NCBI GenBank assembly: GCA_905479115.1 | Contig: CAJQLF010000006.1 | Span: 7,296-71,295, forward strand | DNA from: an uncultured Flavobacteriales bacterium | GTDB taxonomy: Bacteria; Bacteroidota; Bacteroidia; Flavobacteriales_D; Sanyastnellaceae | DNA: 64,000 bases | Direction: 5' to 3' | Part shown: positions 3,357-59,788 of the stretch, one piece after another | Numbering within the stretch: position 1 is the first letter of the stretch | Layout of the letters: each line of letters opens with the position of its first letter | Position numbers and translations under genes: made by a program | The notes under the pieces: model-generated | Database searches by the model: none | What the model was told of the DNA's origin: nothing | Seen by the model: the letters and a program-made list of their open reading frames with translations, nothing else

Positions 3357-3370
3357 CATCGGCGGTTGAT

Positions 3371-9033: not shown

Positions 9034-9070
9034 GGAGACATCGCTCGGCCTGCGATCTTGTTGGCTCCTG

Positions 9071-13698: not shown

Positions 13699-13703
13699 AC
13701 GAC

Positions 13704-17716: not shown

Positions 17717-17718
17717 AA

Positions 17719-29500: not shown

Positions 29501-29527
29501 AAAAGCGCCGTCCGGCGCTTTTCTTTT
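29501..29527 (+). terminator. Rho-independent terminator after the POT transporter gene
   Basis: Stem AGCGCC/GGCGCT with a GTCC loop, followed by TTTCTTTT. Confidence 0.7.
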
Positions 29528-29552
29528 GCGATATTGCGAAAAATTCTATGCC

Positions 29553-30104
29553 ATGCCCTTTAGAGTATTTTACCTCCCGTTTATCCTGCTTTTTGGTTCG
29601 TTAGGAACTGGTCTTGCACAATATTCAGGCATCAATTGGATGTCGCTGGAGGAAGCCATCGCTGCCCAGAAAGAAGAGCCGCGCAAAATTGTGATGGACG
29701 TTTATACCCAATGGTGCGGGCCGTGTAAGATGATGATGAGAAACACCTTCACATCAGAGGACGTCATTGCTTATATGAATGCCAATTACTATGCCGTCAA
29801 GTTTGATGCAGAATCTCCTGACCCTGTCACATACCAAGGCAAGACGTTTACTAACCCGGGGTGGAATCCCAACGCACGCGGACGGAATAGCACCCATGAG
29901 CTATCAAGAGCGCTTGGCGTAAACGCCTACCCTACGTTGGTTTACTTCGACGAAAAAGCGACGATTATCGCTCCCATTCCCGGTTACAAAACACCGCCGC
30001 AGCTGGAAATGTATCTCAAATTCTTTGTGAACCAATTTGAGCCCAACGTTCAACAAGCAGAATGGGAAGCCTACCGCAATTCCTTTGTGCCAAGCTTCCA
30101 ATGA
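29553..30104 (+). CDS. Thioredoxin-fold protein (secreted, WCGPC active site)
   Basis: Signal-like N-terminus. VYTQWCGPCKMM CxxC motif. The ATG at 29553 was chosen; the ORF opens at TTG 29526. Confidence 0.8.
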   Translation: MPFRVFYLPFILLFGSLGTGLAQYSGINWMSLEEAIAAQKEEPRKIVMDVYTQWCGPCKMMMRNTFTSEDVIAYMNANYYAVKFDAESPDPVTYQGKTFTNPGWNPNARGRNSTHELSRALGVNAYPTLVYFDEKATIIAPIPGYKTPPQLEMYLKFFVNQFEPNVQQAEWEAYRNSFVPSFQ

Positions 30105-31518: not shown

Positions 31519-32295
31519 ATGACCAAGGCAACTGGAATCGGAAGAGTTGAATGCAATTTGGACCAACAGGGAGTCCTGACCATTCAGTTTGATCACCCTG
31601 CTAGTAACTCGCTGCCTGGATCTCTTCTTTCCGCGTTAGCAGATTCGATAGATCAAGCCGGTAAGGAGGCTGGATGTCGGGTGATTTTATTAAAATCAGG
31701 TGGAAGCCGGGCGTTTTGCGCTGGTGCCAGTTTTGATGAATTAATTGACATACAGGACGAGAAACAGGGCTTAGCATTTTTCAGTGGGTTCAGCAAGGTC
31801 ATTTTGGCCATACGACGAAGTTCAAAATTCGTCGTCTGTCGCGTTCAAGGGAAAGCAGTTGGCGGAGGTGTCGGTATCGCTGCAGCTGCCGATATCACCT
31901 ATGGGACGCACCATGCAGCCGTGAAGCTATCCGAGCTGGCCATTGGCATCGGTCCATTTGTTGTTGGACCTGCCGTCGAGAGAAAGGTTGGCAAAGCAGC
32001 CTTTACCGCTATGGCCATTGATGCTACCTCGTGGTATTCAGCTGAGTGGGCAAAATCACAAGGACTTTATGCTGAGGTTTTCCAAACCACCGATGAACTG
32101 GATCAAGCGATCAACGACCTCACTCGTCAATTGGCTTCTTCCAGTCCAGAGGCCATGGAGGAGCTTAAAAACGTTTTTTGGGAAGGCACCGACCACTGGG
32201 AAAAACTTCTGCCAGAGCGCGCTGCAATTTCAGGGAAATTAGTACTCAGTGAATTCACGCGCAGTGCCATTTCACGTTTCAAATCCAAGGCATAA
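31519..32295 (+). CDS. Enoyl-CoA hydratase/isomerase (crotonase) family protein
   Basis: GGSRAFCAGASFDEL oxyanion-hole region and crotonase-fold length. Confidence 0.85.
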   Translation: MTKATGIGRVECNLDQQGVLTIQFDHPASNSLPGSLLSALADSIDQAGKEAGCRVILLKSGGSRAFCAGASFDELIDIQDEKQGLAFFSGFSKVILAIRRSSKFVVCRVQGKAVGGGVGIAAAADITYGTHHAAVKLSELAIGIGPFVVGPAVERKVGKAAFTAMAIDATSWYSAEWAKSQGLYAEVFQTTDELDQAINDLTRQLASSSPEAMEELKNVFWEGTDHWEKLLPERAAISGKLVLSEFTRSAISRFKSKA

Positions 32296-32344
32296 TCAAG
32301 GGAAGCGCTTTATAATCTTGCTGCCGACACAATAAGTTGAAAGC

Positions 32345-32376
32345 AAAAAAGGGCACCGAAGAGTGCCCTTTTTTTT
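32345..32376. terminator. Bidirectional hairpin terminator between convergent genes
   Basis: AAAAAA-GGGCAC-cgaaga-GTGCCC-TTTTTTTT. A- and T-tracts flank a 6-bp GC stem, so it can serve both the crotonase gene (+) and cluster gene A (-). Confidence 0.8.
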
Positions 32377-32391
32377 GTACTAATGAATGGT

Positions 32392-34917
32392 TCAGTGAAC
32401 CAAAAGTCGTGACGTCCCCACCTGGTTAGAATTGCGCAACACCACCAAGTAGTATCCAGTTTCAACTCCTCCCAAATCTAACTGCATTGGAGCATCATTA
32501 AAGTAAAGTTCTTTGCTGGTAACCAACCGACCTGAAGCATCCATGACTTCTACAGTAGCCAACCCTGAAAGGGCTGTGCCTCCTTGAATCCAAAATGTCC
32601 CGTTCGAGGGATTCGGATAAACATCGAATACCAAGGCATGAATCTCTGCAACGTTCACAACATTTTCAATAATCACATCAATAGAAGCTGTGCATCCATT
32701 CGCATCTGTAATCGTCAAAACATAGGTTCCAGCAGACAAATTAGAGAGAGTCGGTTCTGAACTGGTAAACGAATCAGGACCTGTCCAGCTGAACTCATAA
32801 GGGAAGGATCCTCCAGAAACAATCAAGCTGATGGAACCCGAACCATCCCCATCGGTTTCATTGGATGAATCCGCGATGACATCAATGTCACAGTAGTAGC
32901 AGCTTCCATCGTCTTCGGTCGCATCGGCATTGTAGTTCTCCGCTTCTGGGTCCGTGCAGCCCTCGACTTCTAACTCGTCGCAAACGCCGTCACCATCAAC
33001 GTCGTTCAAGCAGTTGCCGTCGCAGTCATAGAATTCTTCGGCGTAGGTGCACGATTCATCATCGTCCGTGGCTGTCGCATCGTAGTTACAGGCCATCTCG
33101 TCTGTACAGCCCTCGATTTCCAACTCGTCACAAATACCGTCACCGTCCATGTCGTTCAAGCAGTTGCCGTCGCAGTCGTAGAGTGCTTCGGCATATTCAC
33201 ACATCCCGTCATCATCCGTTGCGGAAGGATCATAGTTGCAAGCTAACTCGTCCATGCACCCTGCAATTTCGAATACATCACAGATACCATCCATATCGGC
33301 GTCATTGAGGCAGTTGCCGTCGCAATCGTACGCTTCGGCAGCATACTCACACGATTCGTCATCGTCCGTTGCTGTCGCATCGTAGTTGCAAGCCGACTCG
33401 TCCATACAGCCTGCAATCTCGAATACATCACATACGCCATCCATATCGGCATCATTGAGGCAATTGCCGCTACAGTCGTAGAATTCTTCCGCGTATTCAC
33501 ACATGCCACCTTCGTCTGTTGCAGCCATATCATAATTACATGCCATCATATCCATGCATCCCACGACTTCCAATTCATCACAAACACCATCCATGTCAGC
33601 GTCATTGAGGCAGTTGCCATCGCAGTCATAATATGTCACTGCAAATTCACACGAACCATCATTGTTGGTCGCATTCGAGTCATAGTTACACGCCATCATA
33701 TCCGTGCAGCCTGCGACTTCCAATTCATCGCATACGCCATCTCCATCCATATCCATCACGCAGTTTCCATCGCAATCGTAATATTCCACAGCATATTCGC
33801 ATGATCCATTGTCCTGGGTAAAGATTGGATCATAGTTGCATGCACTTTCATCCGTGCAGCCTACGCAAGATGTGTATTCGCACGATCCATCCTCTGCATC
33901 CGCTTCAGGATTATAATTGCACGCATTGGAGTTTGTGCATCCCGGGGTACCGCAACTCGTGTAGTCACATGAACCATCATTGTAGACCGCCTCAGGATCG
34001 TAATTGCACGCATCAACATCGGTGCAACCTAAGCAAGAGGAATATTCACACGACCCATTTTCATCCGTTGCTGCAGCGTCATAGTTGCAGGCAAATACAT
34101 CTGTACAGCCTGGAATTTCGAATTCATCGCAAATTCCATCACCGTCCACATCCGAAAGGCAGTTGCCATCGCAGTCATAACCCGTCTGAGCAAATTCACA
34201 TGATCCGTCGTCTGCCGCAGCATCCGGATCATAATTGCATGCTGCTGCATCGGTGCATCCATCGCCCTCAACCTCTGGCGCGTACGTTCCAACACCACAG
34301 AAGGTGTAAGTGAGTCGCAGGTCACCGTCTTGACCATCTCCGTTCACGAAGATTTGAAAATTCATGGTTCCGCAAATTTCTCCGTCCGTCGTCATTTGCA
34401 TCACCAACACACGCAGGTTTTCATCGGGCAACCCATTGGGTGCTCCGTTCAGTATGTACCATGCTCCTCCCGTCTCGTCATCGATGAACACATCTTGGCC
34501 ATCCATCGCAGAGCCAGAAGCGAAGCAATCCGTCCAAGGCTGTTCGGTGCTCTGCAGAGTTGAAGGTGGAACTTGATCACCTGAAGATTGCCCATCAATC
34601 CCGATGGTGACCCAGCTGTCTGCAGCCATTTCAGGGAAAAATGCCAAAAATGCAGGATTAATTCCGTCGGCCGTTACGGCGCCAAAAGGGTCGTTGTAAA
34701 ATCCCGTCGTCGTCGTAATTGAAAGAGGATCCGTATCGCCTCCATAAACGGAAGACAAAAAGTCATCCGCATTGATCATGTCGAAGTACAAGCGGTAAGT
34801 TGTTTGTTCCGGGACGATGTCTGTTGCGTGCTCTTCAAGCGTGATGGTGTATTCCTGAGCCTGTCCAAGGGAAAATACAAATGCCAAGGACAAAAAAAGA
34901 GAAGTGAATCGATACAT
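32392..34917 (-). CDS. T9SS type-A cargo, modular surface protein 'A': signal peptide, unassigned ~190-aa domain, 11 Cys-rich ACNYD modules with 7 TSP3-like linkers, 1 SprB-like repeat, CTD
   Basis: Start MYRFTSLFLSLAFVFSLGQAQ (ATG 34917; the ORF opens at 34950). Repeats of GCTDxxACNYDxxATxDDGSCEY and YDCDGNCLNDxDxDGxCDELE. FSWTGPD...LSAGTYVLTITDANGC. C-terminus VYPNPSNGTFWIQ...GYYLVVLRN is a Por/T9SS type-A tail. Confidence 0.9.
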   Translation of the reverse strand: MYRFTSLFLSLAFVFSLGQAQEYTITLEEHATDIVPEQTTYRLYFDMINADDFLSSVYGGDTDPLSITTTTGFYNDPFGAVTADGINPAFLAFFPEMAADSWVTIGIDGQSSGDQVPPSTLQSTEQPWTDCFASGSAMDGQDVFIDDETGGAWYILNGAPNGLPDENLRVLVMQMTTDGEICGTMNFQIFVNGDGQDGDLRLTYTFCGVGTYAPEVEGDGCTDAAACNYDPDAAADDGSCEFAQTGYDCDGNCLSDVDGDGICDEFEIPGCTDVFACNYDAAATDENGSCEYSSCLGCTDVDACNYDPEAVYNDGSCDYTSCGTPGCTNSNACNYNPEADAEDGSCEYTSCVGCTDESACNYDPIFTQDNGSCEYAVEYYDCDGNCVMDMDGDGVCDELEVAGCTDMMACNYDSNATNNDGSCEFAVTYYDCDGNCLNDADMDGVCDELEVVGCMDMMACNYDMAATDEGGMCEYAEEFYDCSGNCLNDADMDGVCDVFEIAGCMDESACNYDATATDDDESCEYAAEAYDCDGNCLNDADMDGICDVFEIAGCMDELACNYDPSATDDDGMCEYAEALYDCDGNCLNDMDGDGICDELEIEGCTDEMACNYDATATDDDESCTYAEEFYDCDGNCLNDVDGDGVCDELEVEGCTDPEAENYNADATEDDGSCYYCDIDVIADSSNETDGDGSGSISLIVSGGSFPYEFSWTGPDSFTSSEPTLSNLSAGTYVLTITDANGCTASIDVIIENVVNVAEIHALVFDVYPNPSNGTFWIQGGTALSGLATVEVMDASGRLVTSKELYFNDAPMQLDLGGVETGYYLVVLRNSNQVGTSRLLVH
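32893..33861 (-). repeat. In-frame tandem array, 150-bp (50-aa) period, about 6.5 units, inside gene A
   Basis: GC(T/M)D starts fall at aa 364, 414, 464, 514, 564, 614 and 664 of the 852-aa ORF, exactly 50 aa apart. At the DNA level, tccatgcaccctgcaatttcgaatacatca at 33251 recurs as tccatacagcctgcaatctcgaatacatca at 33401. Confidence 0.9.
34300..34854 (-). other. Copy 1 of 5 of the unassigned ~190-aa domain 'X' (in protein A)
   Basis: TTYRLYFDM..DDFLSSVYGGDTDP...FFPEMAADSWVTIG...DDETGGAWYILNGAPNGLPDENLRVLVMQMTTDG..GTMNFQIFVNGDG. Confidence 0.8.
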
Positions 34918-34988
34918 GGTTTTGATTGGGAGAATTCGTTGCGCAGCCAAGTTAGGTCGAATCCGCTAAATCATTAAACGCAAAGGAC

Positions 34989-35022
34989 AAAAAAAAAGCC
35001 AGATGTTCTCACCTGGCTTTTT
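34989..35022 (-). terminator. Rho-independent terminator of gene B
   Basis: AGCCAG/CTGGCT stem with a 10-nt loop. An A9 tract on the + strand gives the U-tract on the - strand, 22 nt past the stop. Confidence 0.75.
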
Positions 35023-35043
35023 GTCTTATTTCTTGCACCAAAT

Positions 35044-38000
35044 TCACCTCACAACTTTTATTTTCTTTTGAATGATACGATTGGTGGCTTTAATCCTCAT
35101 CACATACAAACCATTCGACCAATCGCTGACGTCCAATTTAAACACGTTCTCGTGCGGCACGATAACCCTAGAGGCCATCAGCTTTCCCTGCATATCATAC
35201 CAATCGAGTTGAGAAAACTCCTGATTCATCGGCAACGTCACCTGCACGAAATCATGGGCAGGGTTTGGAAAGACCCGAATGTCCGAGTCCAAAAGCTCGG
35301 CCACGGATACGATGGATTCAACCACAATTTCGAATGATGTTGTCGAGCAGCCATTGCTATCTGTCACCACCAACTGGTAGGTACCTGGATTGAGATTCGT
35401 GATGTCTTCTTCATCGCTTATGAATGCTCCGTCCAGCTGAATCCAACTGAACACATAAGGTCCCACTCCGCCCGTGATAGAGACTGAGATACTGCCTTCT
35501 TCGGCATCGGGAACGGATCCTGTCACATCGTCCAAGAGAGCCAATAATGGATCTGGCTCCTCTACAACTAATTCGAGAACTGCCTCACAACCGGATTCAT
35601 CCGCAACGATGATTACATAGGCCCCACCTGAAAGCCCTGCGAACATTGAATCGGTTTGTATGAGATCTTGCGGCAACAATTGATACGTGATTTCGCTGCT
35701 ATCTGGATACGCCCCTTGAACCGAAATCTCCAACGAACCATCAGCTTCCCCTGCGCATGAAACATCAGAAACACTTGCCGCTGCCGTTATTGTGCAATAA
35801 ACACAGGAACCATCATCGTCGGTTGCTAGCCCATCGAAGTTAATAGCAGAAGTGTCCGTGCATCCAGGCACCTCAAACTCATCACAAATTCCATCAGAAT
35901 CGGCATCTAATAGGCAATCACCGGCGCAGTCCAAAGCTGGCTCGGGGTAGGTGCAAGAACCGTCGTCATCGGTTGCGATTTCGTCGTAATTGCACGCTGC
36001 GGTATCCGTGCAGCCCAATACAGGGTATGCACACGAATCATTGTCGTACTCAGCCTCAGAATCGTAATTCAACGCTTCGCTATCCAAGCATCCACATGCA
36101 TTGGGAAAAACGGGGGGATTCGTCCATGTCGTGCCATCGAATTGAAATTGGTGCAGCGAAGAAGCCGTGTTGTCCCCTCCATTAAACACCTGCACATTCA
36201 ATTGACCATGCATACCTCCCAACGTCGTTACTTGGGCTATCAACACCCGCAGATCATCCCCGGCGACGCCGTTCGAACCTCCATTCAATATGAACCAAGA
36301 GCCACCCACCTCGTCATCCATGACCAGATCATTTCCGGATTCGAATTGAGAGACCCATCCCTCCGGTCCTGAAGAGCCAACAGCGTTAACAGAGTTTTCT
36401 GTATCTGCCGCAGGTCCATCAACTCCAATCGTCACCCAACTATCATATGCTAGTTGAGGGAAAGAACCAATCAGATCTAGATTTATTCCTTGGGCCAAGT
36501 GGGATCCCATCTCGTCCTGGTGCCATCCGGACTCAGCGGCCAGCAGCAAGGTATCTTCGTCGTTGCCATATACAGCGGATACGAAATCCGTCTCAAGAAT
36601 AGTCGTAACAAACATTCTGTACGTAATCATCCCTGCCATTGAACCCGTATCGTGGACCGCTATGGTGTCAATCTCCAAGCCGAAGCTCAAAATTTCATCC
36701 TCTTCACAAGAGCAGAAGTCACAGGTACCGTCATCATCCGTAAAGGCTTCGTCATAATTGCAAGCCGTCGGAGCCGTGCACCCCCCTAACTCTAGCTCGT
36801 CGCACACGCCATCACCATCCGAATCATATAAACAGAGTCCATCACAATCCACAAATTCCCCCGCATACGTGCACGAACCATCCTCGTTCGTCGCGGCAGG
36901 GTTAAAATTACAAGCCGCAGCATCGGTGCACCCCTCAATCGCAATGATCACATGGATGGTTTGCGTCCAATCCGCCTCGTTTCCGCAAGCATCAAATGTG
37001 GTGTAGGTGCGATGGTAGGTCACCGTATCTCCGGACTGAACTACCGTTTCATCTGCAGAAGACCATTGCGCATTTCCATCGCATGCATCTTGCACGGCAA
37101 TGAAGGGTGTCGGAATTTCTTCTCCTTCTTGTTCATTTATCCAAATTTCTGCTGCAGGCAAATTCAAAATTTCCGGTGCCAATGTATCTGCCACACTGAT
37201 CATTTGGATCGCTTGTGCCTGATTCCCTGCATCATCAGTCGCAAAAAATGTTCGTGTGCACAAATAATTGTACGGAGGACAGTCGTAAACGAACTCGATA
37301 GGACCATCGACGAACATGACTTGAACCGTTTCATCACATTCGTCTTCCGCTGTAGCCATTGTGGTTGGCATCGCCTGGTCGCATTGAACAGTCGAATCAG
37401 CGGGAACAAACGTAAAGACCGGTGGAATGATATCATCTAAGCAGGGATCAACAAAATAGTCGCATGAGCCATCCTCATCCGTTGCATCAGCCACATAATT
37501 CGTCGCTTCAGGATCCGTGCATCCCTCAATTTCCAGTTCGTTGCAAACGCCATCTCCATCGTCATCCGCCACGCAGACTCCATCGCAATCGTATGCGACC
37601 TCAGGATATTCACAGCCCGCAAATGACGGCAAACCACAAGCATCTTGCAGACCGATCATTTTGTTGAATCCACCATCCATTCCATCGCCATTTTCGAAAA
37701 ACTGGACATAGAGCTGGCCGTCGAGATTTCCATCGGTGGTAAACTGTCCGAGTAAAACCTTTAAATCCTCACCAGCCACACCGTTCGAAGCCCCATTCAA
37801 AATATACCAAACACCACCTAGGTCGTCTGACATTTCCAAAGAGCCACCCAATTCAAATGGTTCAACCCAAGGATCGAGACCTTCCAAAATACTTATTCCA
37901 GATTCTCCTGCATCCCCTTCGGCTGCAGATTCCAAACCAATGGTAACCCACGAATCATACGCCGCATCCGGTATGAAAGGAAAAACCAGCGGATTCACAC

Positions 38001-39984
38001 TCTGGCCTAATACGCCTCCCGCCTCATGTTGAAAGAAAGAAGTGGTCGTATGAACGAAAGAGGGATTCACATCATCACCTGCAACGGCGCTGACAAAATC
38101 ATCTTGATTCTCGCACAAAGCATAGATTCGATAGGTAACGAATCCTGTCAAATCACTTTCCCCTACAAAACCATCATGCACAACAAATGGCTCTACCTCA
38201 ATGCAATAGCCCTCATATGCCTCATAATTGCATGCCGCTGAATCATGGCATGAAGCGGGATATTCACACGATCCATCATTGTCTGTCGCATTAGCATCAA
38301 AATTCAATGCCATCGCATCCGTGCATCCTATAACTTCCAATTCATTGCAAATTCCATCGCCGTCGTTGTCTCCGATGCAATCCCCTGAACAATCGTAAAA
38401 CTCTTCGGCAAACAGGCACGAAGCATTATCAGCCGTTGTATACGCCGCGTCATAATTGCACGCTTCAACCTCCATGCAACCTATGCAACTTGTGAAGTCA
38501 CAACTGCCGTCGGACGAGGTAGCGTCTGGATTGAAATTGCATGCCAGTGGATTGGTGCAGCCGCTAAGAGCATACACGCAGCTTCCATCATCCTCTGTAG
38601 CCAAGGAATTAAAATTCTCGGCCTCCCCATCTGTGCAACCTAGCACTTCAAATTCGTCGCATACCAGATCACCATCTGCATCGAAAAGACACCCCCCTGC
38701 GCAATCATATCCTTCTTCCGCGAATTGACAATCGGCGGGATCTGAGATGGTATAGGTGGAATCAAAATTGCAAGCCGTGGAATCCATGCAGCCAATGCAA
38801 CTGGTATACTCACAGCTACCATCCGAGGTATTTGCTGTTGGATCGTAATTGCATGCCAATGGATTAAGGCAACCATTGAAAGCACAACTTCCATCATCTA
38901 GTGTAGCAGTAGGGTCGTAATTATCTGCATCCATGTCGGTGCAACCAGCGCATGAACTGTACTCGCATGAACCGTCATTAACGGTTGCCTCAGGATCGTA
39001 GTTACACGCATTGGAAAAGGTACACCCTAGATTTTCGCAGCTTGCATACTCACAACTGCCATCATTGTAAATTGCTTCGGGATCATAGTTGCACGCGGCG
39101 GCATCCGTGCAGCCCGCGCAGGCTAAATAATCGCACGACCCATCTTCTTCCGTAGCATTCGGATCGAAATTACATGCCCAAACATCGGTACATCCTGCGC
39201 ATGTGCCATATTCGCAACTTCCGTCATCCTCGGTAGCGCTTTCATCAAAATTACAGGCTGCAGGATCCGTACAGCCAGGGTAAGCTGCAGAAGGCATCAA
39301 ATCCCAAACATCTGTCCCGTTAAATCCTTGTTGCACTTGTTCCGCATCCAATGCCGGATCAGCTGGAATGATTTGCGCATTCAAAGTTCCTGATGGAACA
39401 CCTGAAGTCGTCACCTGCATAACCAATACCTTCAAATCTTCACCCGCATAACCGTTGGGGGTTCCGCTGAGTAAAAACCATGCGCCACCCAATTCATCAT
39501 CCACAACAAAACCATCTCCATCCGTTGGCGAACCTGCGACGAAATTTTGCAAAAAAGGCTGTTCCTCACTTTGCAAAGCAGAAACATCAGCCTCTCCACC
39601 TCCGCTTGGAGAACTCTCCAAACCAATGGTTACCCAACTATCGTAGGCCACTTCGGGAAAATAGTTTACCACAATGGGTAATATTCCTCCGGCCGTAGAG
39701 CCCGTCGCAAACGGACTGTTGAACATGGGCGCGTCCAAGGACAGCGTCATTGGCGCTGTATCTCCTCCATAAACGGCTGAAACAAAATCATCCGGATCAT
39801 TCAATTCGAGATAAAAACGATAAGTCGTTTGGCCTGCCAATTCCGCCACGCCTTGCTGACCATCGTGAACCATGTACTCTTCGACTACGAACGTACTTCC
39901 TTGTGACCAAGCGAAGGACATGCCGGCGAGTAAATAAATCAATGCTGCGTGAATCACGCCTAAAAGTCGGAAAGAATAGCCCAT
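35044..39984 (-). CDS. Giant T9SS type-A cargo 'B': three copies of domain X, ~18 ACNYD-type modules, 5 TSP3-like linkers, two HYR/Ig-like modules, two SprB-like repeats, CTD
   Basis: The ORF is open to GTG 40035 (1663 aa). ATG 40026 or ATG 39984 (MGYSFRLLGVIHAALIYLLAGMSFAWSQ, signal-like) are the likelier starts. The C-terminus RVFPNPAHDFVQVTL...GLYVMRIKA is a T9SS type-A tail. Confidence 0.9.
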   Translation of the reverse strand: MGYSFRLLGVIHAALIYLLAGMSFAWSQGSTFVVEEYMVHDGQQGVAELAGQTTYRFYLELNDPDDFVSAVYGGDTAPMTLSLDAPMFNSPFATGSTAGGILPIVVNYFPEVAYDSWVTIGLESSPSGGGEADVSALQSEEQPFLQNFVAGSPTDGDGFVVDDELGGAWFLLSGTPNGYAGEDLKVLVMQVTTSGVPSGTLNAQIIPADPALDAEQVQQGFNGTDVWDLMPSAAYPGCTDPAACNFDESATEDDGSCEYGTCAGCTDVWACNFDPNATEEDGSCDYLACAGCTDAAACNYDPEAIYNDGSCEYASCENLGCTFSNACNYDPEATVNDGSCEYSSCAGCTDMDADNYDPTATLDDGSCAFNGCLNPLACNYDPTANTSDGSCEYTSCIGCMDSTACNFDSTYTISDPADCQFAEEGYDCAGGCLFDADGDLVCDEFEVLGCTDGEAENFNSLATEDDGSCVYALSGCTNPLACNFNPDATSSDGSCDFTSCIGCMEVEACNYDAAYTTADNASCLFAEEFYDCSGDCIGDNDGDGICNELEVIGCTDAMALNFDANATDNDGSCEYPASCHDSAACNYEAYEGYCIEVEPFVVHDGFVGESDLTGFVTYRIYALCENQDDFVSAVAGDDVNPSFVHTTTSFFQHEAGGVLGQSVNPLVFPFIPDAAYDSWVTIGLESAAEGDAGESGISILEGLDPWVEPFELGGSLEMSDDLGGVWYILNGASNGVAGEDLKVLLGQFTTDGNLDGQLYVQFFENGDGMDGGFNKMIGLQDACGLPSFAGCEYPEVAYDCDGVCVADDDGDGVCNELEIEGCTDPEATNYVADATDEDGSCDYFVDPCLDDIIPPVFTFVPADSTVQCDQAMPTTMATAEDECDETVQVMFVDGPIEFVYDCPPYNYLCTRTFFATDDAGNQAQAIQMISVADTLAPEILNLPAAEIWINEQEGEEIPTPFIAVQDACDGNAQWSSADETVVQSGDTVTYHRTYTTFDACGNEADWTQTIHVIIAIEGCTDAAACNFNPAATNEDGSCTYAGEFVDCDGLCLYDSDGDGVCDELELGGCTAPTACNYDEAFTDDDGTCDFCSCEEDEILSFGLEIDTIAVHDTGSMAGMITYRMFVTTILETDFVSAVYGNDEDTLLLAAESGWHQDEMGSHLAQGINLDLIGSFPQLAYDSWVTIGVDGPAADTENSVNAVGSSGPEGWVSQFESGNDLVMDDEVGGSWFILNGGSNGVAGDDLRVLIAQVTTLGGMHGQLNVQVFNGGDNTASSLHQFQFDGTTWTNPPVFPNACGCLDSEALNYDSEAEYDNDSCAYPVLGCTDTAACNYDEIATDDDGSCTYPEPALDCAGDCLLDADSDGICDEFEVPGCTDTSAINFDGLATDDDGSCVYCTITAAASVSDVSCAGEADGSLEISVQGAYPDSSEITYQLLPQDLIQTDSMFAGLSGGAYVIIVADESGCEAVLELVVEEPDPLLALLDDVTGSVPDAEEGSISVSITGGVGPYVFSWIQLDGAFISDEEDITNLNPGTYQLVVTDSNGCSTTSFEIVVESIVSVAELLDSDIRVFPNPAHDFVQVTLPMNQEFSQLDWYDMQGKLMASRVIVPHENVFKLDVSDWSNGLYVMRIKATNRIIQKKIKVVR
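36124..36687 (-). other. Copy 4 of 5 of domain X (third copy in protein B)
   Basis: ITYRMFV..ETDFVSAVYGNDED...FPQLAYDSWVTIGVDG...DDEVGGSWFILNGGSNGVAGDDLRVLIAQVTTLG..GQLNVQVFNGGD. Confidence 0.8.
36946..37449 (-). other. Two HYR/Ig-like modules inserted between domain X copies in protein B
   Basis: DDIIPPVFTFVPADSTVQCDQ...AEDECDETVQV...TRTFFATDDAGNQAQAIQMISVADTLAPEI...VQDACDGNAQW...YTTFDACGNEADWTQTIHVI. The conserved Cys/Asp spacing is typical of HYR-like Ig folds. Confidence 0.5.
37636..38205 (-). other. Copy 3 of 5 of domain X (second copy in protein B)
   Basis: VTYRIYALCENQDDFVSAVAGDDVNP...FIPDAAYDSWVTIGLES...SDDLGGVWYILNGASNGVAGEDLKVLLGQFTTDG..GQLYVQFFENGDG. Confidence 0.8.
39301..39897 (-). 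other. Copy 2 of 5 of domain X (first copy in protein B)
   Basis: TTYRFYLELNDPDDFVSAVYGGDTAP...YFPEVAYDSWVTIGLES...DDELGGAWFLLSGTPNGYAGEDLKVLVMQVTTSG..GTLNAQI. Confidence 0.8.
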
Positions 39985-40059
39985 AATCAAATCAAGAGGT
40001 TGAGAGATACGCTTTGTTCTACGCATATCTCGCACCTACGGTTTCGATTTTTGGGCATT

Positions 40060-40085
40060 AAAAAAGGGCCCGGAGGCCCTTTTTA
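40060..40085 (-). terminator. Rho-independent terminator of gene C
   Basis: AAAAAGGGCC-cgga-GGCCCTTTTT perfect hairpin, 19 nt past the gene C stop. It lies just upstream of gene B. Confidence 0.8.
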
Positions 40086-40103
40086 AAAAGATGGATGCGG
40101 AAT

Positions 40104-42512
40104 CTATTGCTTCAACAATTGAAGCGTATGCCGAGCTTCATTAGAGGACAACTCCAATTGATAAGCTCCTGCTGCCATTCCAGTTAAGTCAATCGCCGCC
40201 TGCATTGAACCCCACGCCTGATTAATCGTTTGAGACCAAACAACACGCGCCTGAGCGTCATAAACATTCAAAACAATTGCCTCGCCGTTCGCACTGAAAA
40301 TAGCCAGGTTGTACATACCGAAACTTGGATTTGGACTCACTACAACGTCCTGCAGAAACGAATACTCATCCACACCAAGAGGTAATCCGAAAACTTCAGT
40401 TATGGAGCAACCATTCGCATCGGTCACTGTAACTGAATACTCTCCAGCAAAAAGACCGGTCAAGTCTTCATCGGCACTGGTGAAGTTATCCGGACCTTCC
40501 CAAGCGAATGTATTGCCACCGTTTCCGCCCGCTACCGTGATATCAAGTTCACCGTCACCTGCACCCGAATCATTGGTAAGGACGCCTGTAACAGAGAGTG
40601 CCTCTGGCTCTTCCACTGTAACCTCTGCAGATGCCTGACATCCATTAGAGTCCTGCACATAGAACGTGTAAGACCCAGGAGCGATTTCAGTGAACATCGG
40701 TGAAGAGCCAAAATCACTACCGTCAGAACTGTACTCGAACAAGCTCGTTCCACCTGACGCTCCAACCTCAACCAATCCATCAGTATCACCGTTGCACGAA
40801 ACCGCTGTAGAGGTTGCAGTAGCTTCTACCGCACTAATATCATCCACAGTGAATGTGGTTTCGGCGGTGCACCCTTCCATGTCCGTTACCAGCACTACGT
40901 AGTCGCCTGGCAACAAATCCCCAACTGAATTCGATCCATCTGTATCTTCTCCATTGAATGAAAACATAAGGCCTCCATTCCCACCTGTTGCATCGAAAGA
41001 GACCGCTCCGTTTTGGTCTCCGTTGCATGAAATACCGCTGGCATTGCCGGTTATGACAATCGCATCTGGTGCTTCTACTGTGTATTCATTCGCAGAAGAT
41101 GCAATGCACCCGTTCACATCCATTGCATAAAAGGTATACGTACCACCAGCTATATTGAGAATATTACCGGGCGAAAAGTTGATTCCATCCGCACTGTACT
41201 GCATACCAGCTGAAGTTCCAGATCCACCAATGGTAATCAAAGAAACTACACCATCCTCACTATCAGAACATGTCGCTGGTGCAATACCAGATTGTCCATT
41301 TGCTACTGAGACCGTCAACGCCTGGGGATTCGCGATGGAAATGCCTCCGCTTTCCGCAACACAACCGTTGGCGTCCATTGCATAAACCGTATAAAGTCCG
41401 GAACCCAGGTTATCAAAGTAAAGCTCACTTGAGCTGTCTTCAAACGTCGAAGACAAACTATAGTTCATTGCACCAGAACCTCCTGAAGATGACCCAGAGA
41501 TCACGGCATCAGAACCACCATTGCAACTAACGGACTCCGTCATTGCCGCAGAAATCACAACGGCCTCTGGAGCGACAATTTCCACTTCGATCGATGTCTC
41601 ACACCCTGCACCATCAATCGCAGAAATAGTGTAAACACCTCCCGATAGATCATCAAAACTTCCCACTGCCGAAGCTGGTGTCTCACCGTCAATTCCAAAC
41701 AGAACCCCTAACTGCGCTCCTTCTGCATCGACTGAAATCTCTCCATCCGCCACGCCAGGGCATGTGTTTTGAACAATCTCTGCAACCGACAAATTCAATG
41801 AACAAGGAAAGATACATACCTCTCCGGCCTCTGTGGCATCTGGATTGTAGTTGATCGCTTCTGGATCCATGCAACCAAAGACTGCGCCTTCTGAAGAACT
41901 AAATGGAATACTTTCATAAAGTACAGATTCCGACTGCTCGCCATTCACGAAAATCTGGATATTGAAGTTACCTGTAATAACAGCATCATTTTCAACCGTC
42001 AGCTGAGCTATGAGGACTTTCAAATCATCTCCTGCTTGTGCAACGGGATCTCCAAATAACGTAAACCAAGACCCCCCGTTATCAGAGTTCACAATAAAGT
42101 CGCCTCCTGCAGAGAATGAATTGAATGCATCCGTTAAACCAACGGTGTTGTTGGAACCAGATGCTTCGTTTACATTCATGGCACCAATGGTGATCCAAGA
42201 ATCGTATTCAATTGCTGGAAATGCACCAAAAAAAGCAGGGTTCACTTGCCATCCTTCGTTATTGCCAAGAGAGTTTTGATAGAAACCCAAGGTAGAAGTC
42301 AGTGATAAAGGTGCTGTCGCATCACCATACACTGCCGAAATTTCGTCCGCAGGGTTCGTGCACATGGCGAAGACATGGTATGTCGTCATTCCGTCTAGCT
42401 CTCCAATACTCCCGTCGTGTATGACGTAAGGCTCGACACTAATCTCGACTAGTTGTGCAAAGCTGCTTCCAAACAGTAAAAAGCTCGCAGCAAGAAGTAA
42501 AACGTGTTTCAT
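40104..42512 (-). CDS. T9SS type-A cargo 'C': signal peptide, domain X, one ACNYD-type module, six SprB-like repeats, CTD
   Basis: MKHVLLLAASFLLFGSSFAQ. One Cys module (GCMDPEAINYNPDATEAGEVC). Six units of the C(N/S)G..DG...GG....Y.....G.Y...V.D.NGC pattern. The C-terminus VVVSPNPSFGMYNLAI...GAYQLELSS is a type-A tail. Confidence 0.9.
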   Translation of the reverse strand: MKHVLLLAASFLLFGSSFAQLVEISVEPYVIHDGSIGELDGMTTYHVFAMCTNPADEISAVYGDATAPLSLTSTLGFYQNSLGNNEGWQVNPAFFGAFPAIEYDSWITIGAMNVNEASGSNNTVGLTDAFNSFSAGGDFIVNSDNGGSWFTLFGDPVAQAGDDLKVLIAQLTVENDAVITGNFNIQIFVNGEQSESVLYESIPFSSSEGAVFGCMDPEAINYNPDATEAGEVCIFPCSLNLSVAEIVQNTCPGVADGEISVDAEGAQLGVLFGIDGETPASAVGSFDDLSGGVYTISAIDGAGCETSIEVEIVAPEAVVISAAMTESVSCNGGSDAVISGSSSGGSGAMNYSLSSTFEDSSSELYFDNLGSGLYTVYAMDANGCVAESGGISIANPQALTVSVANGQSGIAPATCSDSEDGVVSLITIGGSGTSAGMQYSADGINFSPGNILNIAGGTYTFYAMDVNGCIASSANEYTVEAPDAIVITGNASGISCNGDQNGAVSFDATGGNGGLMFSFNGEDTDGSNSVGDLLPGDYVVLVTDMEGCTAETTFTVDDISAVEATATSTAVSCNGDTDGLVEVGASGGTSLFEYSSDGSDFGSSPMFTEIAPGSYTFYVQDSNGCQASAEVTVEEPEALSVTGVLTNDSGAGDGELDITVAGGNGGNTFAWEGPDNFTSADEDLTGLFAGEYSVTVTDANGCSITEVFGLPLGVDEYSFLQDVVVSPNPSFGMYNLAIFSANGEAIVLNVYDAQARVVWSQTINQAWGSMQAAIDLTGMAAGAYQLELSSNEARHTLQLLKQ
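41898..42452 (-). other. Copy 5 of 5 of domain X (in protein C)
   Basis: TTYHVFAMCTNPADEISAVYGDATAP...FPAIEYDSWITIG...NSDNGGSWFTLFGDPVAQAGDDLKVLIAQLTVEN..GNFNIQIFVNGE. Confidence 0.8.
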
Positions 42513-42541
42513 GGGTTTTTTTTGGTTGTGATTTTCTCTCT

Positions 42542-42549
42542 CAAATATA
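42542..42549 (-). promoter_or_regulatory. Candidate -7 box for gene C (TATATTTG on the minus strand)
   Basis: The + strand reads CAAATATA, which is TAnnTTTG on the - strand, 30 nt upstream of the ATG at 42512. An A8 tract lies between the box and the start. Confidence 0.35.
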
Positions 42550-42652
42550 GATGTATCCTACTCTGCAGAATATGGGAATACAGAAAATTATTCATGAGTT
42601 TTCACCCAACTTATCGACAAGGAGAATCACGCTTACGAGCTAAAATAAAGGC

Positions 42653-42680
42653 AAAAAAAATGGGAGGTCTCCCTCCCATT
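42653..42680 (-). terminator. Rho-independent terminator of gene D
   Basis: A8 tract followed by the ATGGGAGG-tctc-CCTCCCAT hairpin, 33 nt past the gene D stop. Confidence 0.8.
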
Positions 42681-42712
42681 TCCAAGTTGCTAAAAAGGTG
42701 AATAATGCCTAA

Positions 42713-44506
42713 TCATTCATATTTAATGAACATCCTTCCTTGAGACACCCCCTTCCGAGTGACTTGGACGACGTACGAACCCGCAGGAAGGCTTGACGTT
42801 TCGAAAACAACCACGCCCGTTCCAGGCGCAATCTGTTCTTGGATCACTTCACGGCCCGAAAGGTCAGTAACGGTCAACTGCGCTGCCATTGGATTGGATT
42901 GAAAGTTAACCGTCAACGAACCATAAAATGGATTCGGATATGCTTCGAAGGCATGCTGCTCGAGCTCATCCACAGAGACCACACATGTCGTGCACTTATT
43001 AAAGCAAACGGCTTCTAAAATTTCGGCTTCGCCACTGCGCTCATGGATTCGGTTGTAGGCTCCGAAGCCGTTGGCCAATCCACAGCCTCCCAGTTCGAAA
43101 TTGGTCAATTCATTCCCCTCCTCATCCAATAGAATTCCTGATTCCTCCACATAATCTACACCGTTGTCACCAGTGGATGGATCACCATTGACAAATTTAT
43201 AGAGCACCGTCGAAGCTCCGCTAACTGTTGCCGTTACTTCATACACACCATCCGCATCCGCATCTGTCAATTGCATGGCGCCCGCTTGCCAATTAGGTGC
43301 GGTGAAATTTCCAATGACCCAGACACCGCTTGCGCTCACTTCTTCTTCCGACATTTCTACTCGGAACGTAATATCTGCAGGATCTGGATTTTCGATGCAA
43401 CCCGCTTCACACGAATTGTAGCAAACTTCATAAACAAGGTCCTCTGCGCCAACGGTTAATAACCGGTTATCACTGCCTTCTGCCGCGCAATCTCCTACAA
43501 TGAGTTCATTGTCCACATTTCCGTCACCGTTGCCACTCCAATCGTTGCCATTGACAAACTTAAATTGGATGTCACCGGCGGCAATGCCAATGGTTGCCTC
43601 CCAAATCCCGTCTCCATCGTCATCCGCCAACGGGTTCGCAGAAGGAGTCCAACCTTGAAAACTTCCAGCGATGTGCACTCCATTCACAGAGACCGTTTCT
43701 TGCGTCGTCATGTCCACTCGAAATGTCACTTGCGTTGGAGAAAGACAGGTTCCACAAGCATTATAACAGGGAGCAGCATTTGTCGCCGCATCACCCACCA
43801 TCACCATATTCAGATCCGTGAATTCAAGGATTCGGTTTCCGAAGTCATCTGCACAGTCTTCCCCTGTCAAATTTTCGTTCGGATTGGTCCAGCTGTTGCC
43901 ATTGATAAACTTGAAGACCAAGTTGCCTTCATCCAATGAATCCGCGTAAAATGAAGCCCAGTATTCCCAAACTCCATCGCCATCAGCGTCGGTCATAGCG
44001 CTTCCAGCCGGATCCCAGCCTTGAAAGTTACCTGCAACGTGAACCCCATTAGGTGAGACAGCAGCTTCAACACTCATGTCCACACGCATGCGCACTGTAG
44101 TCATACCGCATGCCGCACAACTCGCATAGCAGACATGATAGGTCACATCGGTATCGTCAGCCCCAACATGAATAAAACGATTGTCATTTCCTGCAACTTC
44201 GACTTGGCACGTGGGCGGCACATCTTCAACGAAATCCCATGATGCTCCATTGATGAACTTAAATTCGTAGGTGCTATCCGATGGTAGTTCGATGGTCACT
44301 TCATAGACGCCATCCATATCGTCGTCCGTGAGCGCAGTGGCTGCAGGATCCCATCCCTGAAAATTCCCGGCTATATGCACGCCTTCTGCAGCCACCACTT
44401 CATTCGTCATATCCACCTGGAACATGACGTTTGACTGAGCGATGCTCAAGGACGAAAAGAGCGAGGTCACAAATAAGAGAGAACTGAATGCGCAAAAATC
44501 TTTCAT
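42713..44506 (-). CDS. T9SS type-A cargo 'D': four CBM20/CBM48-like beta-sandwich repeats plus CTD
   Basis: Start MKDFCAFSSLLFVTSLFSSLSIAQ (ATG 44506). Four ~120-aa repeats carry V(D/E)M....GVH(I/V)AGNFQGWDP....(T/A)D.D.DG(V/I)(Y/W)E....(Y/F)KF(I/V)NG, each ending in C(Y/F)xxCxxC. The C-terminus AYPNPFYGSLTVNF...GSYVVQV is a type-A tail. Confidence 0.88.
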   Translation of the reverse strand: MKDFCAFSSLLFVTSLFSSLSIAQSNVMFQVDMTNEVVAAEGVHIAGNFQGWDPAATALTDDDMDGVYEVTIELPSDSTYEFKFINGASWDFVEDVPPTCQVEVAGNDNRFIHVGADDTDVTYHVCYASCAACGMTTVRMRVDMSVEAAVSPNGVHVAGNFQGWDPAGSAMTDADGDGVWEYWASFYADSLDEGNLVFKFINGNSWTNPNENLTGEDCADDFGNRILEFTDLNMVMVGDAATNAAPCYNACGTCLSPTQVTFRVDMTTQETVSVNGVHIAGSFQGWTPSANPLADDDGDGIWEATIGIAAGDIQFKFVNGNDWSGNGDGNVDNELIVGDCAAEGSDNRLLTVGAEDLVYEVCYNSCEAGCIENPDPADITFRVEMSEEEVSASGVWVIGNFTAPNWQAGAMQLTDADADGVYEVTATVSGASTVLYKFVNGDPSTGDNGVDYVEESGILLDEEGNELTNFELGGCGLANGFGAYNRIHERSGEAEILEAVCFNKCTTCVVSVDELEQHAFEAYPNPFYGSLTVNFQSNPMAAQLTVTDLSGREVIQEQIAPGTGVVVFETSSLPAGSYVVQVTRKGVSQGRMFIKYE

Positions 44507-44626
44507 GAATTCGGTGTTTTTGATTGTTGAGTGTCGAAAGTACACGAACCAAATTAATGGAAAGTTTTCTCCCGACCCTATTCGGGAAACAAAAACTTTT
44601 CAACTGACGCAGATTTTACTCCAGAC

Positions 44627-45070
44627 TTAAAAACTTGGCCGACCCGTGCCAAACTGTGCTATAGGCTCGGACATTTGCAATGGCCACGCAATCGATTTCC
44701 CAGAAACATGGTTAAAGGATACCATTACGGTTTTCGCTGTGGCCAGATTCACCCACTTCCCTTCAACAGCCTTCAAGACTTCATAAGCAGCGGTCATGCT
44801 CTTTTCACCCACTCGCTCAATCCAAGTCACAATTCTAATATCGTCATTGAACAAAATGGGCATCCGGTAGTCAATTTCATGCCGTGCAACGACCATACCT
44901 GCCTCATGCCAATTCCATTTTCTGCCAACGAGCCCTTCAAAGAAATGAATTCTACTTTGCTCAAAATAATTAAAGTAGGTGGCATTGTTTACGATTCCTG
45001 CAGCGTCAATGTCGACAAATCGAATCTCTGGCTGGTACACCTGGCATGCAGGTAAATTAAATGAATTCAT
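44627..45070 (-). CDS. Acyl-CoA thioesterase, 4HBT hot-dog fold
   Basis: EIRFVDIDAAGIVNNATYFNYFEQSRIHFFE, the second such gene in the window. Confidence 0.8.
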   Translation of the reverse strand: MNSFNLPACQVYQPEIRFVDIDAAGIVNNATYFNYFEQSRIHFFEGLVGRKWNWHEAGMVVARHEIDYRMPILFNDDIRIVTWIERVGEKSMTAAYEVLKAVEGKWVNLATAKTVMVSFNHVSGKSIAWPLQMSEPIAQFGTGRPSF

Positions 45071-45102: not shown

Positions 45103-45438
45103 ATGAAAAAAGGTTTGGTCTTTTCTAGGGGGATTTGGTGTGCGCTCTCCATTGCAGGTGTTTGGGGATTTTCGGCCCATTTGGATTCTATCGCGTGGCT
45201 TATGGCTTTCCTTGCCTCTGCCGTGCCTCTTTTTGTGAGCCTGATCAGTTCGAACAAGGCATGGGACCGCGCCTTTCTGTCGATTTTGGTCGTATCCCTG
45301 CAGAGTGTAGCCGTTGCTGTGAGTTGGGCTCAATGGTTCATTCTTGATGCCAGCTCTCTGCATGTCGTATGGATTCCGGCCCTCTCCTTGCTGTTTTGGG
45401 GCATCCACGAGCGGGTCACCCGAGTGAAAACAAGCTGA
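45103..45438 (+). CDS. Small hypothetical membrane protein (about 4 TM)
   Basis: Four hydrophobic stretches (IWCALSIAGVWGF, IAWLMAFLASAVPLFVSLI, FLSILVVSLQSVAVAVSW, VVWIPALSLLFWGI). It competes with a 171-aa minus-strand ORF of non-protein-like composition. Confidence 0.45.
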   Translation: MKKGLVFSRGIWCALSIAGVWGFSAHLDSIAWLMAFLASAVPLFVSLISSNKAWDRAFLSILVVSLQSVAVAVSWAQWFILDASSLHVVWIPALSLLFWGIHERVTRVKTS

Positions 45439-59709: not shown

Positions 59710-59788
59710 GGGAAAAAGTAGTTTCAATTACAGGGTGGACCTCTCCAGCGCAAAAAAGGTTGCTTTCACGAGGGCCTATTGGAATAAC

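Follow-up and report, generated by a model that had tools for sequence, protein, structure and literature searches.

Type-A cargo proteins of type IX secretion systems (T9SS), such as the gingipains of Porphyromonas gingivalis and proteins of Flavobacterium johnsoniae, combine a signal peptidase I (SPI) signal with Gln at position +1, a modular immunoglobulin (Ig)-rich body and a β-sandwich tail of ~75 aa. Here we describe a locus of this kind in an uncultured aquatic Flavobacteriales bacterium, on a stretch of 64,000 nt referred to below as the window (assembly GCA_905479115.1, contig CAJQLF010000006.1, positions 7,296-71,295 of the forward strand). The locus is a cassette of four consecutive minus-strand genes, numbered g1 to g4 in window order, transcription thus running from g4 to g1. 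As T9SS-exported modular adhesin-like proteins of Bacteroidota, their products are of a kind already known. What is new is a ~190-aa domain family (the N-domain), a 26-aa disulfide module (the ACN module) and the organisation of both, together with a protein made of an array of CBM20/48-like carbohydrate-binding modules (CBMs), in a conserved cassette; neither these domains nor this cassette were found described in open-access papers and bioRxiv preprints. Unlike known type-A cargo, g1-g4 encode no protease, glycosidase or other catalytic domain, two modules of g1-g3 belong to no described family, and four cargos stand together in a conserved tandem arrangement. On balance, we lean towards the view that the cassette forms a multivalent surface that binds and captures polymers, particles or other cells. 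It is a core surface apparatus of the lineage, probably a ligand-binding one, and not a variable add-on.

Two further described systems resemble the cassette in part. SprB and RemA of F. johnsoniae are likewise long, repetitive, T9SS-exported surface proteins with PF13573 repeats, whereas the cassette proteins carry a type-A C-terminal domain (CTD), lack an adjacent PorP/SprF-like partner and are much shorter; compared with SprB, they also add N-terminal heads and Cys/Ca²⁺ modules. Type-B T9SS cargo associates with PorP-like proteins, according to the excerpt of PMC9143113. Neither a type-B CTD (TIGR04131 / CHU_C) nor a PorP/SprF-like neighbour was found for the cassette, the neighbours being genes for a thioesterase, HU, enoyl-CoA hydratase (ECH) and citrate synthase. 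Because the tail is of the wrong type and a PorP-like partner is missing, the cassette is not placed in the SprB family. SusE and SusF of Bacteroides thetaiotaomicron are, like g4, non-catalytic tandem arrays of starch-binding-type CBMs destined for the cell exterior. However, in g4 a T9SS tail and an SPI signal take the place of a lipoprotein anchor, and no polysaccharide utilization locus with SusC/SusD or an amylase surrounds it; it is therefore not assigned to the SusE/F family.

Export signals and module architecture of g1 to g4

With the start codon chosen as the first Met ahead of a hydrophobic segment, each of the four genes begins with a signal peptide that, by eye, would be cleaved after Ala or Ser and before Gln (SLGQA/QEY in g1, FAWS/QGS in g2, SSFA/QLV in g3 and LSIA/QSN in g4, with the slash at the cleavage site). 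In the Bacteroidetes, SPI cleavage usually exposes Gln at +1 (the Q-rule, PMC5837995). All four signals fit this rule and read as SPI signals, and g4 lacks a lipobox Cys at +1. At the other end, all four proteins score above the cut-offs for type-A tails (27 bits for PF18962, Por_Secre_tail, and 23 bits for TIGR04183; Table 1), so that both marks of type-A CTD cargo, tail and signal, are present in every gene. The modelled CTD of g4 also superposes on the CTD of the NucA substrate in the T9SS complex 8glk_D (TMt 0.83, Foldseek).

Between signal and tail the proteins draw on a shared kit. That is, g1 has one N-domain, a stalk of ACN modules and thrombospondin type 3 (TSP3)-like loops, and one SprB-type repeat; g2 has three N-domains set among ACN/TSP3 arrays, two HYR-like Ig modules and two SprB-type repeats; g3 has one N-domain, one 2-Cys ACN module and six SprB-type repeats; and g4 consists of four CBM20/48-like modules. 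Counted over g1, g2, g3 and g4, there are 1, 3, 1 and 0 N-domains, 11, 18, 1 and 0 ACNYD-like modules (motif count), 7, 5, 0 and 0 DxDxDGxCDxxE loops (motif count) and 1, 2, 6 and 0 SprB-type units. No catalytic Pfam family was matched in g1-g4.

Much of this had been foreseen by the original prediction, which was made from the letters of the DNA. The four gene sizes it gave (841, 1646, 802 and 597 aa) were reproduced exactly, a signal peptide and a type-A tail were found in each protein as it had proposed, and its module counts were recovered on recounting, the shared kit being borne out by Pfam and NCBIfam matches as well as by motif and unit counts. For g2, the modules it listed are present, and two HYR-like Ig modules (PF23237) had been overlooked. 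The block is not alone as a T9SS-cargo region: the window contains two other cargo genes, at 44-1876 (+), encoding 610 aa with PKD repeats and a CHU_C type-B tail, and at 57814-59727 (-), encoding 637 aa with a type-A Por_Secre_tail and ~560 remaining aa lacking a Pfam match (E≤1e-8). Neither of these two cargo proteins has N-domains or ACN modules.

Conservation of the cassette across relatives

When a single genome of each GTDB species was scanned with a profile of the N-domain, 438 matching stretches and 75 loci were obtained, nearly all of them in metagenome-assembled genomes (MAGs) of uncultured Flavobacteriales from marine and lake samples. The gene order thioesterase–g4–g3–g2–g1–ECH–citrate synthase–thioredoxin-like (Trx)–POT–DPP-IV was found, complete or truncated only by a contig end, at no fewer than 14 species-representative loci (L001, L004, L005, L006, L007, L016, L031, L044, L045, L046, L051, L053, L066 and L075), further syntenic loci being partial or variant. 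Gene architecture is retained across the 14 loci, in which citrate synthase is 84-97% and ECH 62-82% identical. In every syntenic locus, each of g1-g4 found its best match in the gene at the corresponding position, in most cases with colinearity from end to end: g3 orthologues are colinear, 802-809 aa long and 44-85% identical, g2 orthologues align over ~1,650 aa with up to 80% identity, and g1 orthologues range from 802 to 1141 aa, the stalk length varying between species. The HYR-like Ig region is conserved in all g2 orthologues. Relative to L046, g1-g4 are 76-85% identical, four of the five flanking genes 86-97% and ECH 82%.

Within the species, five contigs from different metagenomes, reached through a g4 homologue of 99% identity (P0260), were 98.6-98.8% identical over ~12 kb, with at most 4 gap positions and an unchanged number of repeats; coverage does not extend into the last ~400 bp of g1 at its 3' end. 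An exact look-up of the g3 sequence in the contig collection returned no record. Given the synteny in at least 14 species, the colinear orthologues and the near-identical conspecific contigs, the cassette is a stable, vertically inherited part of the lineage genome, and it shows no sign of ongoing shuffling. Moreover, mean identity over eight orthologous loci was 65-73% for the N-domains and 65-86% for the CBMs, against 36-59% for the CTDs. This shows that the heads (N-domains and CBMs) are under stronger constraint than the sorting tails.

Some relatives carry variants of the cassette. In L074 the thioesterase gene is directly followed by g3, g4 being absent, and L071 has g3-g2-ECH without g1; in L044 and L045 g1 has two N-domains, and in L066 the beginning of the g2 frame is overlapped by an additional N-domain fragment of 314 aa. 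Giant paralogues built from the same kit occur elsewhere in the genomes of relatives (L011, L012, L020, L024, L060 and L062). They are 3,900-4,700 aa long (at most 4,688 aa) and contain as many as 7 N-domains, 40 ACN modules and 29 Ca²⁺ loops. In the closest relative MAG (L_MB10), N-domain genes occur at no fewer than five loci.

Separate termination of the four genes

A hairpin with an A-tract, a GC stem and a T-tract lies 10-50 nt past each of the four stop codons. In a strict scan of the minus strand over 32250-44700 (12.4 kb), in which at least 5 T had to follow a hairpin of -10 kcal/mol or better, six sites were returned, among them the four post-gene hairpins, which end at 42653, 40060, 34989 and 32345 and have -14.3 to -16.2 kcal/mol. 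These are exactly the coordinates at which the original prediction had placed one terminator per gene. A loose consensus terminator scan found no overall enrichment in the block and flagged only two of the four post-gene hairpins (after g4 and g2). Across the 14 syntenic loci of other species, a hairpin with a T-run follows 48 of 57 gene ends, in equal relative position and with differing stem sequences. Because of this placement and cross-species conservation, the post-gene hairpins are more than chance, and separate termination of each gene is well supported by these predicted structures. Taken with the conserved order and flanks in at least 14 species, the colinear orthologues and the stability within the species, the hairpins support the view that the four genes are a dedicated set. 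This part of the original prediction is in fact strengthened, since the genes of relatives proved to be syntenic, not scattered.

Weaker hairpin/T-run sites were also seen on the minus strand within the 5' part of g2, at 39813-39853 and 39551-39592 (-13.4 and -11.6 kcal/mol). They are probably due to chance, and could otherwise reflect transcription attenuation. A sigma-70 promoter scan stayed below shuffle expectation and was set aside, this model not being meaningful for Bacteroidetes.

The N-domain family

The five N-domain copies of the cassette are 33-43% identical in pairwise comparisons. An AlphaFold2 model of the g1 copy, based on an alignment of 82 sequences, is a β-sandwich with a pLDDT of 97.4 and a pTM of 0.92. 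In a HMMER search of 1.84 billion cluster representatives, the family comprised 2,800 clusters (50% identity) at E≤1e-3 and 1,479 at E≤1e-10. Wherever a source names these homologues, it does so as 'hypothetical protein', and among the 120 homologues listed the precomputed Pfam annotation is empty for almost all. Pfam partners in 52 diverse N-domain proteins were Por_Secre_tail (14), SprB (10), TSP3_bac (4), LTD (4) and CBM48/X25 (1), along with a small number of further domains that are non-catalytic and either β-rich or Ca²⁺-binding; a catalytic Pfam family was found in none of the 52. Some homologues of ~300 aa consist of an N-domain and a T9SS tail (P0100, P0101 and P0104). The confident model, these domain-plus-tail proteins and the 2,800 clusters together argue that the N-domain is an autonomous folded unit.

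In line with the original prediction, which had left the domain unassigned, searches for known relatives gave nothing convincing. At E≤10, the best Pfam match was DUF4859 (E 0.041, in one of the five copies) and the best NCBIfam matches had E 0.066-0.2, both at chance level, and a sequence profile search of the PDB reached E 0.58 at best. Foldseek returned no fold relative from the PDB (best E 1.6e-3, TM 0.29-0.34) and no relative from BFVD (best E 8e-3). The weak top matches, to FnBPA, DUF4466, cohesin and CBM3 (TM ~0.3), were not used, and the idea of a diverged CBM20/48 was dropped after an hhalign comparison between the profiles of the N-domain and of g4 yielded a probability of 0.4%. The N-domain is a real, unannotated family, and its confidently modelled structure has no fold relative in the PDB.

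The CBM20/48-like modules of g4

The four modules of g4 are anchored by the motif G[VW][HW][IV][AI]G[NS]F, found at aa 42, 154, 276 and 394. Above gathering scores (in brackets), g4 matched CBM_48 with 59.5 bits (22.4), X25 with 53.6 (27), AMPK1_CBM with 49.8 (26.8) and CBM_20 with 32.6 (23.3); a faint match to PF26120, 'CBM_1st_SusF', is present in precomputed tables. The AlphaFold2 model of g4 has a pLDDT of 89.7, and its modules superpose on the CBM20 of STBD1 in complex with maltotetraose (8x8k_A) with TMt 0.77, a root mean square deviation of 2.6 Å over 113 columns, 24% identity and probability 1.00 (Foldseek). No sequence relative of g4 was found in the PDB by phmmer (E≤0.01), the CBM20 relation coming from the fold search. 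Foldseek matches of g4 to GhpA (grappling-hook protein), an S-layer protein and animal Ig-chain receptors were rejected as generic multi-Ig alignments (TM ~0.1). The model thus indicates that g4 is an array of the CBM20/48 fold, in keeping with the one putative glycan-binding member of the original prediction.

The g4 modules share not only the fold but also the GxFxxW…KFxxGxxW pattern of CBM20 and CBM48 domains (the CBM20 of STBD1, the CBM of AMPK β and the N-terminal domain of isoamylase). They differ in a length of ~110-130 aa with an extra Cys-rich C-terminal extension and in having four invariant Cys per module. In 57 orthologues, GxFxxW…K-x6-W is invariant in modules 1-3 (W52/K83/W90, W164/K199/W206 and W286/K316/W323), and module 4 lacks the second Trp. 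This spacing would correspond to that of W100/K126/W133, the residues through which the CBM of the AMPK β-subunit contacts glycogen. The g4 modules most likely bind α-1,4-glucan, i.e. glycogen or starch-like polymers. At least 2,422 homologues of g4 were found and, where named, they are called 'T9SS type A sorting domain-containing protein'.

Stalk modules: ACN modules, acidic loops and Ig-like repeats

The ACN module is 26 aa long, has the consensus xGCTDxxACNYDPxATxxDGSCEY and occurs in a 3-Cys and a 2-Cys form. No Pfam or NCBIfam family matched it in scans of g1 and g2 (E≤0.01). A profile built from 26 ACN modules matched residues 331-353 of human MPEG1, or perforin-2 (PDB 6u2j), with E 1.6e-4, and the corresponding site of mouse MPEG1 with E 0.15; MPEG1 was the sole family matched in the PDB, no other solved structure family scoring below E 0.9. 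The region of MPEG1 between MACPF and MABP has been described as a small 'EGF-like' linker (PMC7593815). It is present once in a pore-forming protein, whereas the cassette has 30 tandem copies of the ACN module in bacterial stalks. Since the match spans 23 residues only, common ancestry is not established; the sequence similarity is a lead, not proof, for homology of the ACN module to the MACPF-MABP linker of animal perforin-2, and the two segments may represent a shared ancient disulfide mini-module. A viral connection was considered for the ACN module, as five IMG/VR contigs (L081-L085) carry it, and was rejected on account of T9SS-like tails: when two ACN proteins from L082 (L081 being the same region) were inspected by eye, one had such a tail (…VYPNPVS…) and the other apparently did too. 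To judge by these tails, the 'viral' contigs are probably Bacteroidota DNA.

In g1 and g2, the DxDxDGxCDxxE loop always lies within a fixed 50-aa unit together with an ACN module, and it has a conserved Cys (DGxC). Its acidic motif, DxDxDGxxDxxE, is that of TSP3 and anthrax-PA-type Ca²⁺ loops and recurs 12 times in g1 and g2, the nearest model being the Ca-binding domain of Binary_toxB (30.5 bits in g1, cut-off 25; second score of the g1/g2 scan 20.3 bits). Unlike TSP3, these loops are tied to an ACN module, carry the Cys and leave the Pfam TSP3 models unmatched. The 'TSP3-like linkers' of the original prediction are hence upheld as a motif but not as a Pfam family. A tandem array in g1 (32950-33865) consists of ~6 copies of a 150-bp (50-aa) unit as detected by TRF, and this duplication is old, since the copies are only 73-77% identical. 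The SprB-type units of g3 all end in GxYxxxxxDxxGC (regex); PF13573 exceeds its cut-off in g2 and g3 and falls below it in g1.

The Cys content is high in both stalked proteins, with 61 residues in g1 and 86 in g2. A gene for a thioredoxin-like protein (Thioredoxin_2 / DsbH-like; 29526-30104, +) lies two genes away from the Cys-rich g1 and is syntenic in all relatives examined. Its product could help to form the disulfides of g1 and g2, or the proximity could be coincidental.

Table 1. Features of the four-gene cassette, in window coordinates (position 1 is the first nucleotide of the window).
Feature	Position	Strand	Details
g1 open reading frame (ORF)	32392-34950	-	gene from Met 32392..34917, 841 aa
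g2 ORF	35044-40035	-	gene from Met 35044..39984, 1646 aa
g3 ORF	40104-42512	-	802 aa
g4 ORF	42713-44545	-	gene from Met 42713..44506, 597 aa
g1 N-domain	34279..34854	-	aa 22-213; copy used for the AlphaFold2 model
g2 N-domain a	39295..39897	-	aa 30-230; hmmsearch 282.5 bits
g2 N-domain b	37618..38211	-	aa 592-789; hmmsearch 287.7 bits
g2 N-domain c	36118..36687	-	aa 1100-1289; hmmsearch 272.9 bits
g3 N-domain	41901..42452	-	aa 21-204
g4 CBM-like modules 1-4	42992..44434	-	aa 25-505
g1 stalk	32890..34260	-	aa 220-676; 11 ACN modules and 7 Ca²⁺-loop motifs
g2 first ACN/TSP3 array	38203..39276	-	aa 237-594; 12 of the 18 g2 ACN modules, 2 TSP3-like loops
g2 HYR-like Ig pair	36946..37449	-	aa 846-1013; PF23237 HYR_4C 28.0 bits (cut-off 27), marginal
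g1 SprB-type repeat (1)	32692..32889	-	aa 677-742; regex; PF13573 24.8 bits (cut-off 28)
g2 SprB-type repeats (2)	35347..35790	-	aa 1399-1546; PF13573 41.7 bits (cut-off 28)
g3 SprB-type repeats (6)	40407..41837	-	aa 226-702; ~77-85 aa each; PF13573 50.9 bits
g1 type-A CTD	32401..32622	-	PF18962 50.4 bits, TIGR04183 46.5 bits
g2 type-A CTD	35056..35274	-	PF18962 48.5 bits, TIGR04183 43.0 bits
g3 type-A CTD	40131..40337	-	PF18962 30.9 bits, TIGR04183 30.3 bits
g4 type-A CTD	42746..42940	-	PF18962 33.9 bits, TIGR04183 38.8 bits
Predicted terminator hairpin after g4	42653..42683	-	GGAAATGGGAGG-GAGA-CCTCCCATTTTTTTT, -16.2 kcal/mol
Predicted terminator hairpin after g3	40060..40084	-	AAAAAGGGCC-TCCG-GGCCCTTTTTT, -14.3 kcal/mol
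Predicted terminator hairpin after g2	34989..35022	-	AAAAAGCCAGGTG-AGAA-CATCTGGCTTTTTTTTT, -15.1 kcal/mol
Predicted terminator hairpin after g1	32345..32376	-	AAAAAAAAGGGCAC-TCTTCG-GTGCCCTTTTTT, -14.6 kcal/mol
Exact -7 promoter box	42542..42549	-	TATATTTG, 29 nt upstream of the g3 ATG

Genomic surroundings

Both flanks of the cassette are made up of housekeeping genes, encoding ECH, citrate synthase, the thioredoxin-like protein, a POT transporter and DPP-IV on the g1 side, and a 4HBT thioesterase, HU, a SpoU methylase, MatE and Fmt on the g4 side. The G+C content of the block (0.469-0.491) is the same as that of the window and of the flanks. The window also holds parA and parB (2547-4276) and dnaA (11809-13251), and the cassette is located ~20-30 kb from dnaA. 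Because dnaA and parAB are present, the window appears to lie near the chromosomal replication origin, where the gene dosage of the cassette would be high while cells grow.

Neither SusC/SusD nor a glycoside hydrolase was among the Pfam matches of the 39 window ORFs of at least 200 aa, 4 of which had no match at the threshold used. These four ORFs without a Pfam family (E≤1e-8) encode 247-346 aa and are found at 8954-9988, 13665-14408, 14395-15435 and 17695-18615. A 111-aa hydrophobic ORF without a Pfam match (45103-45438, +) lies between the thioesterase and HU genes and has identical length in five of five conspecific contigs. An Rfam scan of the entire window gave no RNA family.

Discussion

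If the cassette forms a binding and capture surface, its four non-catalytic modular proteins would cross the inner membrane by the Sec/SPI route and the outer membrane through the T9SS, whereupon the type-A CTD would be cut off and the C-terminus thus formed attached to the cell surface, as in the best-studied systems. Because proteins bearing type-A CTDs are anchored by their processed C-terminus, namely to anionic lipopolysaccharide according to the excerpt of PMC9143113, the SprB and Ig repeats would be cell-proximal and the N-terminus distal. Proteins g1 and g3 would then each present a single N-domain head at the tip of a stalk, which in g1 would be built from 26-aa ACN modules knotted by disulfides, in alternation with DxDxDGxCDxxE loops that bind Ca²⁺, and in g3 from six SprB-type repeats. 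The three heads of g2 would be distributed along a longer stalk, and g4 would provide a four-fold display of CBM20/48 modules as an α-glucan binder. In this arrangement the N-domain would act as the ligand-binding head of the cassette proteins.

A number of observations weigh against this proposal. The N-domain model has no structural relative that could lend it a function. The Ca²⁺ loops are known by motif only, the Pfam TSP_3 and TSP3_bac models giving no match in g1 or g2 at E≤0.01. TAnnTTTG is the -7 promoter consensus of the Bacteroidetes type, and a search upstream of g1-g4 found an exact match at g3 only. The cassette is not adjoined by SusC/SusD genes, amylases or any transporter, and a nutritional role for g4 is therefore unsupported by gene context. 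Release of T9SS effectors into the medium is also possible, cell retention not being universal, according to the excerpt of PMC10202324. Finally, genes for the T9SS machinery (SprA, PorV, GldKLMN and others) are absent from the window. Indirectly, the presence of six CTD-bearing genes in 64 kb and the fact that all relatives are Flavobacteriales suggest that this organism may encode the machinery.

Other explanations have to be set against a capture surface. The location of the cassette in the conserved lineage backbone, not in an island, and its likely high gene dosage ~20-30 kb from dnaA/parAB would also suit a structural coat of the S-layer or glycocalyx kind, in which the four proteins would be abundant and serve protection or spacing, shielding the outer membrane from phages, grazers and surfaces, with the N-domains as lattice contacts; a strong conserved terminator after each gene is likewise expected of highly expressed units. 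The top Foldseek match of the whole g4 model is indeed an S-layer protein (7ptp), yet through a generic Ig-chain alignment with TM 0.12. We regard such a coat as rather unlikely, as the starch-binding CBM fold of g4, in which aromatic and lysine residues are conserved, suggests a ligand on the outside, and the recurrence of N-domains in many paralogues, up to 7 copies in giants of 3,900-4,700 aa, is typical of adhesins and not of lattice subunits. Binding could also take place away from the cell, if the CTD were cleaved and the proteins diffused away to serve as exo-lectins or flocculants, aggregating particles or polysaccharide or conditioning surfaces. Several type-A CTD proteins of F. johnsoniae occur in the medium, and multivalent CBM and N-domain arrays would cross-link polymers; T9SS effectors may be either released or anchored (excerpt of PMC10202324). 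However, a public good without an enzyme or uptake partner would bring no obvious return in dilute seawater, and rigid Ca²⁺ loops, disulfide knots and Ig repeats between head and tail suit projection from an anchor, which makes release an unlikely fate.

A role in gliding motility, as adhesins like SprB and RemA that the gliding machinery moves over the cell surface, is suggested by the PF13573 matches in g2 and g3, with six units in the latter, and by the predicted T9SS dependence of the proteins as judged from their tails. But SprB repeats are widespread as Ig-like spacers, the CTDs are of type A and not type B, no PorP/SprF-like or sprC/sprD-like partner gene is adjacent, and g1-g4 are 4-10 times smaller than SprB, so we consider this role very unlikely. 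The least credible explanation, and in our judgement one that hardly deserves belief, is the one that follows from the original prediction, i.e. an accessory island of paralogous, recombining surface proteins that varies among strains or relatives. It can draw on the somewhat faster evolution of g1-g4 compared with four of their five neighbours in L046, on the variable length of the g1 stalk among species and on the relatives that lack g4 or g1. Against it stand the same housekeeping flanks and gene order in at least 14 species, the colinear positional orthologues, the absence of a G+C anomaly, the unrearranged conspecific contigs with their constant repeat number, the low identity between paralogous N-domains and the old copies of the g1 array. 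What stands of the original interpretation is a dedicated, separately terminated set of T9SS cargo; the accessory, recombining island does not.

Flavobacteriales play a major part in consuming organic matter from algae, and attachment lies at the heart of how they operate, while the surface proteins of their uncultured lineages are almost all annotated as 'hypothetical'. The present analysis provides a clean definition of the large unannotated N-domain family with a confident model, and a second unannotated module, ACN, from which a profile can be made for cleaning up how many giant proteins of Bacteroidota are annotated. The compact conserved set of four genes, in which g4 carries a testable α-glucan prediction, offers a practical experimental entry point. 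Should the N-domain turn out to be a lectin that binds a polymer of algae or particles, a marker gene of attachment would become available for metagenomes and metatranscriptomes. A more far-reaching proposal, which we advance as tentative and think possible without expecting it, is that the N-domain is a new ligand-binding fold of the lectin or adhesin type, forming with the ACN modules and Ca²⁺ loops a lineage-wide head-on-stalk attachment system. Were this true, the origin-near four-gene cassette would be the core of the system and the giant paralogues, in which as many as 7 N-domains and 40 ACN modules occur, its extensions, and the N-domain/ACN system would be the main means by which widespread uncultured marine and freshwater Flavobacteriales attach to phytoplankton, particles and polymers.

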